A stretch of 53,397 nt of DNA from Planctomycetota bacterium (GCA_038227875.1 JBBRPR010000057.1:1-53397), one strand, 5' to 3'. Positions 6,741 to 48,632 are shown, counted from the stretch's first letter. The notes: generated from the sequence alone by a model not told the origin. Translations and numbers: made by a program.

Positions 6741-6896
6741 ACTCAATGCATCACGTGCAGGAAGAGAATTGTATTTTTCATGCAACTGGCAGCGTATTTT
6801 CTATGTATCTAAATTACTGACACAGCCTACATGCTTTCAGGTCCGTTGTCGGTGATTTGGTTGGTATGGCGTACATTCCCGCTACAGGAGGTATAT

Positions 6897-7388
6897 ATGT
6901 GGTTCGACTTCAAAAAAGCCGTGTGCCTGCTGCCGCTCGTGGTCGTCGTGGGTTGTGGATCGGATTCGACGCCGCCGAAACCCAAGACGGTCGATAAGCC
7001 TGTGGTCACGACGCCGGAGCCCGCAACTCTTCCGCCGCCGCGCTTGCCGGACGAACCGCCGCTGCCTAAGAATCCGGCCACCGAGCCCACCTCCAGCGCC
7101 ATGCCGCCGCCACCGCCCAAGGATGTCGCGAAAGTCGATGCGCCTCCTGCGCCGACAAAGAAGGTGCTCGACGAATTCGATCCGGAAGTCGTCGGCGGAC
7201 GCCCGATCGGCAAGTGGATGGAGATGCTCCGCGGCGACAAGAAGGACGACATCATCGAAGCCGCCGAGGCCTTGAAACAGGTCCCGACGAAAGCCAAGAG
7301 CGCCATCCCGCGATTGCAGGAGCTGACGAAAAACGCGGACAAGGAGATCGCGCAGGAAGCGGTGGATGCGTTGAAAGTCATCAAATGA
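6897..7388 (+). CDS. Lipoprotein with Pro-rich linker and C-terminal HEAT-like helical repeat
   Basis: AGGAGG RBS; lipobox VVVG-C; Pro-rich spacer; AAEALKQV...AIPRLQEL...AQEAVDAL. Confidence 0.75.
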   Translation: MWFDFKKAVCLLPLVVVVGCGSDSTPPKPKTVDKPVVTTPEPATLPPPRLPDEPPLPKNPATEPTSSAMPPPPPKDVAKVDAPPAPTKKVLDEFDPEVVGGRPIGKWMEMLRGDKKDDIIEAAEALKQVPTKAKSAIPRLQELTKNADKEIAQEAVDALKVIK

Positions 7389-7393
7389 GTGCG

Positions 7394-7674
7394 AATTCAA
7401 AATTCAAAAACATGCGGAAGACCTTGGTGCCAGTCGCTGTCCGACCTTGTTGACCATGATCAACAAGGTCGGACAGCATATGGAAAATTTTCCATATGCT
7501 GGAAATTGACCAGCGGCCAAATTTGAACGAATACGAAGTCGACCAACCTTCAGGCAAATTTGCCTGACCACTTCTAATGGTGGAGTTGTAACTGTGGCAC
7601 ACCTGGGGACCAATTGGTCCCCGGGGAAAACAGTCCGCGAACCGTTTCGCAGCGCGCGTTTTGAATTTTGAATT
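7394..7674. repeat. Array of variable ~26-bp palindromes bracketed by a perfect 16-bp inverted repeat
   Basis: IR AATTCAAAATTCAAAA (7394-7409) / TTTTGAATTTTGAATT (7659-7674); palindromic units start at 7444, 7475, 7509, 7546 and 7601. Confidence 0.85.
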
Positions 7675-7680
7675 GCCGTC

Positions 7681-9921
7681 TCACGCGAGTCCAAACACGC
7701 GCAGCCGGTACAGCTCGCTCTCAAACGCGATCTCCGTCGTGTTCTTCGCCACGATCTTCTGTTTGGGGTCGAGCAGGTCGACAACCGTCGCGGCGCGCGG
7801 AAGCGTCAGCACGCGTTTTCCCGGGCGGTAGCTGCACCAGACCGAAAGCATGCGGCTGTTGAACCAGAACAGATCCGTCGTGTTCGAGAAAATGTGCACG
7901 CCGGCCAGCCGCGCGACTTCGCGGATCAGGATTCCCGGCAGCATCACCGTACCGGAATAGATCGACGTCCACGCTTTGAATTTTTTCAGCGCCAGGCCCG
8001 GATGCAATTCGACTCCGGCGTTTGCGCACGGATCAGCCTTCTTGTTAGCGGCCTCAAAAAACGGCGGCGCGTCCTCCGTGCCCGTGTAGCCCAGCACCGT
8101 GGCCTCCGGATCGTCGACGGCGAACAGCGGCGCGCAGGCGGTGATGGGCGGAAAGAGGTGGCGTTCGTGATAGCGCACCGGCGAACGGAGCTCCCGCGCA
8201 AACTGCCCGTACGCGTACGTGTCCGGCAGCGCCTGCTGCAACGGGTGTTCGCCGTCTGCGACATAAACAGTCGGCGCATGCCGCTGCTGGTGCGCGCGGA
8301 ATTGGAAGCCGGTCAGTGCTTCCATGTGTTTGACGGAAAGCGACTTCGCCTCTCCCGGAAAACCGAAACCGGCGCCCCAACCCCAGAGAATCGTGGCGCC
8401 ATTCCGCTTCAGTGAGTCGATCGCCTTGCGCGCAGCGGCGTCCGGCGCCGTCGCAAACGGAATGACGAAGAGCTTGTACTGATCGCGCGGAAAATCCGGA
8501 TGCGTCAAATCGTCGACGGCAAAGCCATCCCACGGCGCGCCGATGCGATTGAGTTCCTGAATGACTTCGCGGTGGCCGAGGTTCCTGCAGACGCGTCCGT
8601 TGTTCCGCATATAAGGGGCACTGTCGCGCTCCCAGATCACGGCGATCTGCGCGTTGGGCGTGCCGCCGTGCGAGAGATTCCAGGCGTCGAGCTTGATCAA
8701 CTGCTTGAACGTGTCGTGTTCCTGTTTCGACTTGTGCCAGCGGTATTGAAAATCCCACCACCACGCAAAGTTGCCGTTGGTGATGTTCTGGACGCCCTGG
8801 CGCAGCAGCATGCCGCAGTAATCGTCCATGTCGCGCACGCCGCCGCTCCAGTTGCCCTGCTTCAAGTGCGGCGGGCCCTGGTCTTCCTCGGCGATAAAGA
8901 TTTTCTTCCGCATGCGCAGGCTGCCGGTCAGCGTGTGGAGCGGCTGGGCATCCTTCGGTGCGCGGCATTCGTAGGGCGGGGGGCCGGCGAAGAAATCGAC
9001 GCTCGGATCGCTGCGCACTGGCAGATGTCCTTCGATCGAAAAGCTGTCGTCAATAATCGGCTCGTTGAAGAATCCGGCGAGCAGATCGGGCCGGTGCTTT
9101 TTCATCTCGCGCGGTCCGGCGAGCACCGTCGCGGTGTGGAATTCAAGAAAGAACGCGCGCGTGTCGAGGTAGCGCTGGTGGCCGGCCGGCTCGTAGAAAT
9201 CGCCGATGTCCGGCTCGGGTCGTTTCTGCTCGGGTTCAGGCGTCGCCTTTTCGAACGTGACGCGTTTGTTGCGCCAGGCATCGCGCAGTGAATTCACTTT
9301 GCGATACTTCGCCTGCAGAAATTTGCGGAACTCCACGAGGTAGCACGGCGCCGCTTCGGAAAGCACCCAGCGCGGATCCTTTTCGTAAACGTACCACTCC
9401 TGCGCGCCGCCGCCTTCGAACATCATTCCCGCGATGCGGTTTTTGCGCGGCAGCGCGTCGATGATTTCCAAATGGCGCTGCGTGTACCTGCGAATCTCGT
9501 CGCGCACGAGCGGACTGGAAAGCGCGTAGCGGATGCCTTCCTGGCGCATGTAATTTCCGCTCGGCGGCAGGTCGAGGACCTTTCCATCGGGGCCGTGGCA
9601 GACGTGGTCGGGATTGGCGTTTGCCCACTCGCGCGAGACGACAAAGTAGTTGCCGAAAATCAGGTAATGATTGTTACCCATGTCGAGCAACCGGTTGAGA
9701 TGCGTCTCCGTGCGCGCGCGGAATTTTGTCCACGTTTCGTCGGGATCCTGCAAGATGGAACAGACGATAATCCGGTGACCGTCATCCACGAAGCGCTGGA
9801 TGTAATCGTAGTCGGTGTGGAGGCGGTTGCGGTAGATGAACAGCGGCAGCAGTTCGCCCTGGGCGGTGATGCGCGGCACGCCATTGACGCGGGTGATCCT
9901 CGGGGAAGTGGGTCTTGGCAT
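7681..9921 (-). CDS. Beta-galactosidase-like (GH42-like) glycoside hydrolase with trimerisation-type domain
   Basis: FRKFLQAKYRKVNSLRDAW motif, AQIAVIW..S and YKLFVIPFA (GATase-like trimerisation domain), REVARLAGVHIF; GGGAG RBS; no signal peptide. Confidence 0.7.
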   Translation of the reverse strand: MPRPTSPRITRVNGVPRITAQGELLPLFIYRNRLHTDYDYIQRFVDDGHRIIVCSILQDPDETWTKFRARTETHLNRLLDMGNNHYLIFGNYFVVSREWANANPDHVCHGPDGKVLDLPPSGNYMRQEGIRYALSSPLVRDEIRRYTQRHLEIIDALPRKNRIAGMMFEGGGAQEWYVYEKDPRWVLSEAAPCYLVEFRKFLQAKYRKVNSLRDAWRNKRVTFEKATPEPEQKRPEPDIGDFYEPAGHQRYLDTRAFFLEFHTATVLAGPREMKKHRPDLLAGFFNEPIIDDSFSIEGHLPVRSDPSVDFFAGPPPYECRAPKDAQPLHTLTGSLRMRKKIFIAEEDQGPPHLKQGNWSGGVRDMDDYCGMLLRQGVQNITNGNFAWWWDFQYRWHKSKQEHDTFKQLIKLDAWNLSHGGTPNAQIAVIWERDSAPYMRNNGRVCRNLGHREVIQELNRIGAPWDGFAVDDLTHPDFPRDQYKLFVIPFATAPDAAARKAIDSLKRNGATILWGWGAGFGFPGEAKSLSVKHMEALTGFQFRAHQQRHAPTVYVADGEHPLQQALPDTYAYGQFARELRSPVRYHERHLFPPITACAPLFAVDDPEATVLGYTGTEDAPPFFEAANKKADPCANAGVELHPGLALKKFKAWTSIYSGTVMLPGILIREVARLAGVHIFSNTTDLFWFNSRMLSVWCSYRPGKRVLTLPRAATVVDLLDPKQKIVAKNTTEIAFESELYRLRVFGLA

Positions 9922-24709: not shown

Positions 24710-24735
24710 ACCCCGTCGCGAATTCGCGACGGGGT
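24710..24735. repeat. Perfect 26-bp palindrome
   Basis: ACCCCGTCGCGAATTCGCGACGGGGT. Confidence 0.9.
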
Positions 24736-24835
24736 TAGAAACCACCAGTTAGCGAAAAGTAATCGACTTCGGACGGTAACAGTCCAGCGCCTGCATTTTT
24801 GAATTTTTAATTTTTGATTCCCCGCCGCGCGCACA

Positions 24836-25161: not shown

Positions 25162-25218
25162 ACCTTGTTGACCATGGTCAACAAGGTGTCCAACTTCCGG
25201 GCCACGTGGCCCGGAAGT
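25162..25218. repeat. Two tandem perfect 26-bp palindromes
   Basis: ACCTTGTTGACCATGGTCAACAAGGT (25162-25187) and ACTTCCGGGCCACGTGGCCCGGAAGT (25193-25218). Confidence 0.9.
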
Positions 25219-42774: not shown

Positions 42775-43629
42775 ATGTCTGCTGCAGTACAAGAAGTGCC
42801 ACCCATTACGACTCCGATCACCGTGACGAAAGAAGAGCGATTCCTCTTCGACCTGCAGGGGTTCATCCTGCTCAAGGGAGTGTTGACGCCGGAGGAATGT
42901 CAAAGGTACCGGGGGATCGTCGACGATCTGGAATCGAAAACATTCGACGATGAGGAAAAGCGCGAACGCTTGAACCGCACGGGGAGGCCCTGTCAACCCA
43001 CGCTGGCACGCAGGCCGACCAACGTTCGCCTCAACGGACTGCTGCGCATGGATCCCGCGTTTTACGAACTGATTGCGCATCCCAAGGTTTCGCCGTATCT
43101 CGAAGCATTCATGGATGCTTCGCCCGGCACGGACGGTCCGCAACTGGGGAACACGTGGTCGATCAGCAAATTCAAGGGCGATGAACCGATGGGCTGGCAC
43201 CGCGGCGTCGCGCCGTTTCATTACAGCTACCGCAACGGCCGGATCTTCACGCCTATGCTCAACACGGTCTGGTTTCTGACCGACAACGGGCCCGACGATG
43301 GCTGCATGGTTGCGCTGCCCGGCGGACACAAGAGCAACATCGACCTGGAGTGGTATCAGTACCACGGCTTGGACATGCCCGGCGCGCGAGCGGTCACCGG
43401 TCAGGCTGGCGACGTCTTCCTGTTTTCAGAGACTGTCTTGCACAACGGTCTGAACAAGACCACGCCGGGAAAGCGCACGAATCTTTATTACAACTACATC
43501 TCGCGCGGGATGGAAGTGACGATGGAACACGCCTACCACTTCGTCATGCCGCCCCATGTTCGCGCTCGATTCAGCGACAAGCAACGGGCCTACACGGAAT
43601 GGATGGAGCACATGAACGCAGTGGAATGA
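42775..43629 (+). CDS. PhyH-family Fe(II)/2OG enzyme with a non-canonical HxG motif
   Basis: FDLQGFILLKGVLT, WHRG (43195-43206), VWFLTD, GCMVALPGGHK, AGDVFLF, VLHNG, KRT; CAGGAG RBS. Confidence 0.88.
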   Translation: MSAAVQEVPPITTPITVTKEERFLFDLQGFILLKGVLTPEECQRYRGIVDDLESKTFDDEEKRERLNRTGRPCQPTLARRPTNVRLNGLLRMDPAFYELIAHPKVSPYLEAFMDASPGTDGPQLGNTWSISKFKGDEPMGWHRGVAPFHYSYRNGRIFTPMLNTVWFLTDNGPDDGCMVALPGGHKSNIDLEWYQYHGLDMPGARAVTGQAGDVFLFSETVLHNGLNKTTPGKRTNLYYNYISRGMEVTMEHAYHFVMPPHVRARFSDKQRAYTEWMEHMNAVE

Positions 43630-48610: not shown

Positions 48611-48632
48611 GTGGTCGCAAATTTGCGACCAC
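48611..48632. repeat. Perfect 22-bp palindrome preceded by ACC
   Basis: GTGGTCGCAAATTTGCGACCAC. Confidence 0.8.

Follow-up and report, generated by a model that had tools for sequence, protein, structure and literature searches.

Bacteria, archaea and phages commonly encode orphan ParB-like proteins, and in Bacillus subtilis a parS site is located inside spo0J. Members of the ParB family bind palindromic sites (PMC7022226), and the domain fusions of their orphan relatives were surveyed in 2025 in a study (10.1101/2025.10.10.680097) in whose main text a term search found no mention of palindromes, inverted repeats, the proteins' own gene or coding sequence. Dispersed 17-bp palindromes, mostly not at promoters, occur in the genomes of Cluster O mycobacteriophages, which encode a protein with a ParB-like domain, and the authors of that work predicted a dimeric binder (PMC4351075). 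Here we describe an array of loopless palindromes at positions 7394-7674 of a 53,397-nt stretch of DNA from a bacterium of the Planctomycetota (GCA_038227875.1, JBBRPR010000057.1:1-53397). This stretch, referred to as the window, is the whole of contig C57 in an assembly of 9.34 Mb in 176 contigs (59.6% GC, 88% complete). The array is probably a multi-specificity array of parS-like sites for several ParB-like paralogues encoded in the same genome, with binding predicted from the correspondence between the palindromes of the array and palindromes inside the paralogue genes.

The likeness to ParB-parS, to Noc with its binding sites (NBS) and to KorB with its operators (OB) lies in a predicted ParB N-terminal fold combined with a helix-turn-helix (HTH) domain, in an arginine motif reminiscent of Box II and in the dyad symmetry of the sites. 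As with parS in spo0J, sites are found within the gene of the protein itself, and as with Noc many sites of the paralogue family would be scattered along the chromosome. The putative sites differ from those of all three systems in being 22-26 bp long with arms that vary around a constant GCAAATTTGC or CAATTG centre, in numbering about 300, mostly just 3' of genes and in arrays that often mix the sites of different paralogues, and in being accompanied by at least 12 paralogues in one genome. The Cluster O phages likewise combine many copies of a dyad-symmetric site with a gene for a ParB-like domain protein (PMC4351075), but their sites are of another sequence and length, the genome is that of a phage and not a chromosome, and the relevant passages of that paper draw no link between the sites and the ParB-like gene.

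Four clear loopless palindromes are located within 7394-7674. P1 (7436-7477) is a 21+21 palindrome with one mismatch, whose 26-bp core at 7444-7469 is of the ACC...GGT type with a CCATGA centre; P2 (7474-7501) is a perfect 14+14 palindrome; P3 (7546-7571) has a perfect 18-bp core at 7550-7567; and P4 (7601-7626) has 11 of 13 pairs matched around a CAATTG centre and includes a 12+12 palindrome with one mismatch at 7602-7625. None of these dyads is assigned to a strand. All four lie at the coordinates given in a first-pass annotation of this DNA, which also took the segment at 7509-7534 for a unit with a decayed right arm. This segment retains 6 of 13 pairs and is a decayed copy; the homologous slot on contig C17 is still palindromic. 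The same annotation had counted a half-unit at 7421 and a degenerate unit, GCGAACCGTTTCGC, at 7637, both of which turned out to be conserved sub-terminal segments of an enclosing foldback rather than units.

As a class of dyad sites the units are genuine, and their geometry is fixed. A genome-wide scan, as proposed in the first-pass annotation, found them in hundreds elsewhere in the genome and in far smaller numbers in the controls. Of perfect loopless palindromes 20 bp or longer there were 217, against about 12 expected (4 in 3 Mb) from a third-order Markov simulation of 3 Mb scaled to the whole genome, and the arm lengths of loopless palindromes peaked sharply at 13 nt. In 310 windows of 26 bp, 12 or more of the 13 pairs were palindromic (117 windows perfect and 193 with one mismatch), versus about 16 windows expected genome-wide (5 in 3 Mb of simulation). 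The general form, (G)ACC-N8-AATT-N8-GGT(C), is 26 bp long and present in about 300 copies. In a logo of the 169 units that start with ACC or end with GGT, these ends are invariant, the centre is AATT, and G and C occupy arm positions 10 and 11, while five arm positions are poorly conserved and 170 of the 338 half-sites are distinct; the flanks prolong the dyad, with G/A on one side and C/T on the other, before the information is lost. The shared geometry noted in the array is strict across the genome: ACC-N20-GGT with ten perfect outer pairs occurred 121 times and each other spacing from N16 to N26 at most 6 times. The pattern ACC-N8-AATT-N8-GGT yielded 178 matches here, compared to 7-11 for shifted controls and 0-7 per genome in 19 others of the same order, one of which (G017, with 1 match) is unpublished.

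The symmetry of the units is kept at the level of the DNA. The central 4-mer is palindromic in 143 of 195 units (AATT in 112, CATG in 11, ACGT in 8, AGCT in 7, CCGG in 4 and TATA in 1), and the two central bases, although unable to pair in a hairpin, are nevertheless symmetric. Among mismatched pairs in tandem gaps there were 28 G.U and 20 A.C on the sense strand, without a preference for G.U, and transversions made up 88 of 180 unit mismatches. A single orthologous comparison was possible, with a metagenome contig (L069) that shares 91% identity with C20:65260-65702 across 443 nt and carries a unit at the same position. The two versions differ by three mirrored pair changes and both are perfect palindromes.

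Scans with the commonest core of the units located the palindrome inside open reading frames (ORFs) on two viral contigs, both times read in the same frame, and a search of PHROGs identified these ORFs as ParB-like (8e-63 and 4e-16). The viral protein used as a query gave zero matches in the present genome; only a profile of the linker and HTH region and a wider alignment recovered paralogues there. A profile of 21 sequences (A3) gave 16 matches here; the 19 other genomes of the order had 0-3 each, and 13 of them had none. The matches correspond to about 12-15 paralogue loci, at least 12. The ParB-like genes and the sites are thus co-expanded in this genome. A transposase recurring as a neighbour was not found, and genes for extracytoplasmic function (ECF) sigma factors are only modestly enriched beside units.

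An AlphaFold model of the paralogue on contig C31 (mean predicted local distance difference test score, pLDDT, 80.6) divides into an N-terminal, a helical DNA-binding and a small C-terminal domain. The top PDB matches of this model in Foldseek were all ParB, Noc, Spo0J or KorB, with E-values of 6e-6 to 1e-4 over about 190-240 aligned columns and 33 matches at E <= 1e-3. The paralogues are accordingly modelled as a ParB N-terminal fold of the CTPase type followed by an HTH DNA-binding domain. A motif reminiscent of the Box II arginine motif, DGRHRLRAC, is invariant at D72, G73, R74, R76, A79 and C80 in the 21 sequences. Family databases placed the proteins less clearly: TIGR00180 matched weakly (E 0.006), Pfam ParB_N remained below threshold on the copies of this genome, and PADLOC and NCBIfam assigned them to no defence system or named family. 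In homologues from elsewhere, a fused DNA methyltransferase domain is frequent.

The palindrome inside these genes lies in the DNA for a disordered linker between the N-terminal and DNA-binding domains, in the C31 protein residues 142-149, for which the pLDDT falls below 50. A palindrome of 14-26 bp was present at the same offset in 9 of 15 paralogues or fragments in this genome, which in full-length matches is about 383-392 nt from the start of the match, and several of these are full ACC...GGT 26-mers, for example on C33, C36 and C107. The genes of relatives had a linker palindrome in 3 of 6 cases. For a test in viruses, we retrieved 80 loci by motifs outside the linker (DGR[HN]Rx[RL]AC and HLxExQRAM) from among at least 544 relatives, and used the 60 distinct loci with QR[AS][MLIV], selected without regard to the palindrome, to measure arms in a 95-nt linker window with one mismatch allowed. 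Arms of at least 8 nt were found in 38 of the 60 linker windows, versus 0 and 2 of 60 in equally sized upstream and downstream controls, and arms of at least 10 nt in 26 windows versus none in either control. The centre was AAATTT in 32 and CAATTG in 5, and it fell in all three codon phases (22, 14 and 2), so that the same DNA is read as the peptides ANL, QIC or KFA. The in-gene palindrome is a frame-independent element of the DNA and not a peptide motif.

To judge by their sequences, one and the same element occurs as in-gene and as intergenic dyads. For each in-gene dyad there are 3-24 further matches in the genome within 2 of 20 core mismatches, nearly all of them intergenic. Among 308 units outside the paralogue genes, 40 were within 3 of 20 mismatches of one of 9 in-gene sites, versus 1.6 in a control in which arm positions were permuted symmetrically; the corresponding numbers were 58 versus 6.3 within 4 mismatches and 88 versus 15.9 within 5. 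In the array itself, the 20-nt core of P2 is 2 of 20 mismatches away from the in-gene palindrome of C107:4298-5164, P3 is 3 of 20 away from that of C31:44288-45295, and P4 is 3 of 20 away from the palindrome of a paralogue fragment at C3:101377-101762. The window also contains an intergenic 22-bp palindrome (48611-48632) that copies the one inside the paralogue C15:40518-41387 and has asymmetric flanks of about 15 nt; the 22-bp class of this paralogue comprises about 24 near-copies.

In view of the in-gene palindromes, the correspondence of the dyads and the viral linkers, the simplest account would be that the dyad acts in cis as a DNA site linked to the ParB-like protein whose gene surrounds it. 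Since protein family and sites are both expanded and the array juxtaposes the matching sites of at least three paralogues, we read it as a probable multi-specificity parS-like array. The first-pass annotation had named parS-like sites as one of several options, and the palindromes inside ParB-like genes here and in viruses now lend it evidence of the sequence kind; its small-RNA and recombinase readings gained no support.

The array is one copy of a mosaic repeat that was duplicated as a block. At least 8 other loci (on C70, C19, C14, C85 and C17, two on C12, and on C15) keep the same order of slots and linkers, and the palindromes in homologous slots differ by changes that are mirrored on both arms. 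In slot P4, for instance, the arms in three copies read GGGGACC|GGTCCCC, GGGGACA|TGTCCCC and AGGCACC|GGTGCCC. The linker at 7568-7600 (plus strand) is conserved and forms a small hairpin, with CCAC..GTGG here and CTAC..GTAG in other copies. The earlier picture of an accumulating library of sites accordingly gives way to that of a repeat with a fixed slot order.

The array is enclosed by a perfect 16-nt inverted repeat (7394-7409 and 7659-7674), as first reported, but this bracket does not mark the boundary of a system as had been supposed: it belongs to a separate family of terminator-like foldbacks, distinct from the inner units. Its 16-nt repeats are tandem AATTCAA heptads, but the arms are longer than this and, in family members, extend inward as AAACGCACGCGG ... 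CCGCGTGCGTTT. On the left, the arm (7394-7420, plus strand) consists of 2.3 heptads followed by a diverged stem base, AAACATGCGG, and overlaps the sub-terminal segment GGAAGAC..TTGGTGCCA.. (7415-7435, plus strand), the half-unit of the earlier account; on the right, sub-terminal segment and arm together span 7637-7674 (plus strand) and read ..CGAACCGTTTCGCAGCGCGCG TTTTGAATTTTGAATT. The heptad leader was found on 48 bracket ends, 30 of which face away from the stop of an upstream gene, and in 23 of these 30 the bracket starts at most 12 nt from the stop codon. We counted 8 clean bracket pairs in addition to the diverged pair at 7394-7674. The shortest relatives are plain bidirectional terminators with an A-tract, a 13-bp stem and a T-tract, while longer ones hold 100-300 nt of mosaic content. 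Like intrinsic terminators and terminator-like miniature inverted-repeat transposable elements (MITEs), the bracket has an A-rich tract, a GC stem and a T-rich tract near stop codons; it differs from them in that the loop has grown into a mosaic of 100-300 nt with inner units that lack T-tracts. No direct repeat indicative of a target-site duplication was visible at its flanks.

Combining these observations, the gap has a structure of two layers. The outer layer is the terminator-like foldback, with A-rich heptads, a GC stem base, a mirror stem and T-rich heptads placed directly after both convergent stops, and nested in it is an inner layer of four or five 26-bp dyad sites from the family of about 300 units. 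The dimer of each paralogue would recognize its own dyad, as ParB does with parS and Noc with its binding sites, and the array could serve as a landing pad that draws several different paralogues to one position at a gene end, where clamping or spreading dependent on a nucleoside triphosphate may follow. The cellular role might be in chromosome organization, in insulation or a roadblock at gene ends, or in competition with mobile elements. More tentatively, and as a possibility rather than a probability, a widespread orphan ParB-like family, including the phage ParB-methyltransferase fusions, may write its own dyad into the linker DNA so that gene and site travel and diverge together; in this genome a dozen or more specificities, with sites copied some 300 times to gene ends and joined in multi-specificity arrays, would then form a combinatorial addressing layer that has not been described.

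Several observations weigh against the interpretation as a parS-like array. P1 has no matching paralogue site, the nearest being 8 of 20 mismatches away, and about 70-80% of the units differ from all known paralogue sites at 6 or more of 20 positions, a distance no better than in the control, so that most units are without a matched paralogue. The full-length paralogue on C14 lacks a linker palindrome, as do 2 of the 6 genes of relatives at the seed used. The neighbours of three paralogues (DUF4340, FtsK, a PfkB kinase and TPR proteins) include no ParA or conserved partner. This sets the family apart from canonical partition systems and makes it an orphan, like Noc or KorB. The assembly is incomplete, several paralogues are located at contig ends, and genes and sites are seen to co-expand in one lineage only. 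Identical 26-mers recur at loci with unrelated flanks, indicating a copy-and-paste spread. Finally, the context counts rest on crude ORF-based gene calls, by which 267 of the 310 units fall outside called genes and 43 inside, with densities per kb of 0.33 in convergent, 0.18 in tandem and 0.074 in divergent gaps. In tandem gaps the end of the upstream gene was nearer for 80 of 109 units and the start of the next gene for 29, and the median distance of a unit was 47 nt to the adjacent gene end versus 122 nt to a gene start. This bias towards the 3' side of genes suits selfish repeats or RNA hairpins equally well.

The main rival, which we regard as unlikely, holds that the units are selfish or neutral repeats akin to repetitive extragenic palindromic (REP) sequences and bacterial interspersed mosaic elements (BIMEs), spread by copying and tolerated 3' of genes, with the ParB-like linkers a mere source or sink and the intergenic copies unbound. 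The units share with REP sequences, BIMEs and REPINs mobilized with REP-associated tyrosine transposases (REPIN-RAYT) a short palindromic form, an extragenic location, copy numbers in the hundreds, an enrichment after genes that falls from convergent over tandem to divergent gaps, and a mosaic arrangement with conserved linkers. The identical 26-mers in unrelated surroundings, the 94 of 195 units with flanks unlike those of any other unit, and the many units that match no paralogue are also as expected for such repeats, and REP-type hairpin families proper are found by Y1 transposase genes in this genome, where repeats of this kind evidently thrive. However, the logo of 169 units shows no unpaired GTAG or CGTC tag of the type given for REP sequences (PMC3733652), and the units are loopless perfect dyads without orientation, symmetric even in the unpairable centre, which is not a property of REP sequences. 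They correspond to no known REP consensus, and share homology with an element inside the genes of a DNA-binding protein family. None of 8 matches to Y1_Tnp (PF01797) had an ACC-type unit within 2.5 kb; near these genes only two 11/13 near-palindromes of other sequence were listed, and the hairpins near two of them, including the pair that flanks the copy on C24, belong to other families. For these reasons a REP-RAYT system as such was rejected. No transposase-like gene was found to recur beside or between units among their neighbours, and decay without renewal would not leave 117 perfect and 193 one-mismatch units.

An improbable alternative is that the units are decoy or incompatibility sites. 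The ParB-like genes would then belong to mobile elements or viruses, and the chromosomal copies of the site would titrate or mis-load foreign proteins as a sponge, an idea already raised in the first-pass annotation, or the elements would hitch-hike on them. The abundance of the family in viral contigs fits this idea, as do the frequent fusions to phage-type DNA methyltransferases noted in the survey (10.1101/2025.10.10.680097), the mixing of sites that match different paralogues in one array, and the location of the two units of a related genome (G006) next to primase/helicase and resolvase genes. It fits less well that three of the approximately 12-15 paralogue loci, when examined, were located among different ordinary genes without shared mobile-element neighbours, that the mosaic repeat was duplicated as a block and not site by site, and that the 281-bp stretch gave zero matches in the phage and plasmid collections searched, a comparison that the first-pass annotation had proposed for the single units.

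A role of the units as RNA hairpins at mRNA 3' ends, either as terminators without a U-tract or as protection from exonucleases, is very improbable. Their proximity to gene ends would suit such a role, and the 298-nt gap between the convergent genes folds far more stably than chance would give, with free energies of -133.8 (plus strand) and -135.6 kcal/mol (minus strand) compared to a mean of -83 kcal/mol for shuffled sequences (z = -9.7 and -10.0, with none of 200 shuffles as stable). The bracket, moreover, has the anatomy of a terminator, down to its shortest relatives. The units themselves are followed by no T-tract (there is no enrichment of T after GGT), show no tolerance of G.U on the sense strand, stay symmetric in the unpairable centre and keep the palindrome within coding regions in three frames, while canonical terminators with loops of 3-5 nt are already present in the genome. 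The units are also nearly absent from the 19 related genomes and are therefore not the termination signal of the lineage. The view that they are neither terminators nor a CRISPR array (clustered regularly interspaced short palindromic repeats), taken at first sight, was borne out: ordinary terminators were rejected because T-tracts are lacking and canonical terminators are separate, and CRISPR because the units vary and there is no constant repeat. A chromosomal partition site was likewise rejected, as canonical parS-type palindromes (by the consensus in PMC7022226) sit by the canonical parB on C3.

If the linker palindrome is the recognition site, the DNA targets of hundreds of uncharacterized ParB-like proteins could be predicted from their own genes, about ten natural pairs of paralogue and site would be available for studying how ParB specificity diversifies, and the role of a ParB-type protein at gene ends would become a question. 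Should binding fail, the units would still be a useful case of dispersed repeats that arose from an element within a gene and whose symmetry is kept perfect in the DNA. We found no description of the linker palindrome in the literature passages on ParB-like proteins that were covered, subscription journals being mostly outside this coverage, and the literature matches listed for the core decamer as a text string concerned chemistry or were otherwise unrelated to ParB.

Beyond this genome, a scan of metagenomes with ACC-N5-GCAAATTTGC-N5-GGT found at least 120 stretches, and among 80 loci 60 of 83 matches had at most two mismatched pairs. One metagenome yielded at least 14 contigs with matches. 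Two of them align to ParB-like genes here, and the rest either match different regions or do not align, from which it seems that dispersed units exist in at least one further uncultured lineage. Among 33 matches in viral contigs, 25 had at most two mismatched pairs, some being repeats of one conserved gene segment. A search of species genomes with ACCCT-N3-GCAAATTTGC-N3-AGGGT gave 14 loci, several of which, from unrelated phyla, were not counted as members of the family since their hairpins run into T-tracts, as in ordinary terminators, and fit the pattern by chance.

In the related genome G006, the two perfect units (L021:5016-5041 and L022:5041-5066) are both in contexts resembling mobile elements. 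One is located inside an ORF that combines a primase zinc ribbon with a ParB-like linker and HTH region, beside a DnaB-like helicase, and the other is 364 bp past a serine recombinase gene. In the genome studied here, several paralogues are found at contig ends (C4:38-556, C32:38-547, C36:85221-85823 and C110:14768-15127, the C4 and C32 copies having the same domain peptide), and the true number of paralogues is probably higher than counted. The near-copies of the 22-bp palindrome are intergenic elements of about 55-60 nt whose asymmetric flanks would read like the flanking codons of the C15 gene, so that each element looks like a copied piece of that gene. The genome also has an ordinary system for chromosome partition (C3:119529-120186), apart from the ACC-type units. 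Three identical parS-type palindromes of 20 bp are located at C3:120030-120049, 120167-120186 and 42946-42965, and two of them adjoin the parB at C3:119529-119828, the only gene with a strong ParB_N match.

In a looser set of 424 units, grouping within 120 nt gave 295 singles, 52 pairs, 7 triples and 1 quadruple. Genes for ECF sigma factors were the sole enriched neighbours, at 13 of 327 versus 115 of 5757 (odds ratio 2.2, p 0.014), a modest effect; 15 of the 18 units at these 13 genes are upstream of the sigma gene (e.g. C2:46586-48106 and C10:116042-116680). Two families of REP-like hairpins with 8-nt loops and the stems CAAGGAGCAAGC and CACTGGTGGCT have about 144 perfect copies in all, many arranged as inverted pairs about 114 bp apart (C10:59330/59444, C24:87707/87820 and others). 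One such pair flanks a Y1_Tnp (PF01797) gene at C24:22150-23030 and looks like a classical REPIN-RAYT arrangement. Canonical terminators with an A-tract, a GC stem, a loop of 3-5 nt and a T-tract are found as well, and bidirectional ones reuse the stems AAAAACTCCCCGC, AAAAACTCGCCGC and AAAAATCCCCCGC with different loops (e.g. C20:43412, C43:18314 and C21:15396), which suggests either duplication of terminators or strong convergence.

The genes on either side of the array, at 6831-7388 (plus strand, 185 aa) and 7681-9921 (minus strand, 746 aa), are without Pfam matches, and their stop codons lie 5 nt before and 6 nt past the bracket, respectively. No close relative of the 746-aa protein was present in 30 related genomes (best identity 31%) or in metagenome contigs. 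A search of Rfam with positions 6800-8300 (evalue mode) returned only two plant microRNA models, both below threshold and on the hairpin at 7436-7477, which we dismissed as chance. No RNA run was listed among the sequencing runs that contain the locus. Among the contigs of four sequencing runs, a second run represents a near-identical strain over 7332-7548 with few substitutions, and contigs break at the palindromes. The public short-read contigs of the likely source sample (run X1) stop and restart exactly at the 7602-7625 palindrome with an overlap of 26 bp (7605-7630), and assemblies of genomes with such units may therefore break or collapse at them. Elsewhere in the window, a further perfect ACC-type unit at 24710-24735 adjoins a solitary right arm of the foldback (about 24780-24815), and two more perfect units, at 25162-25187 and 25193-25218, together span 25162-25218.

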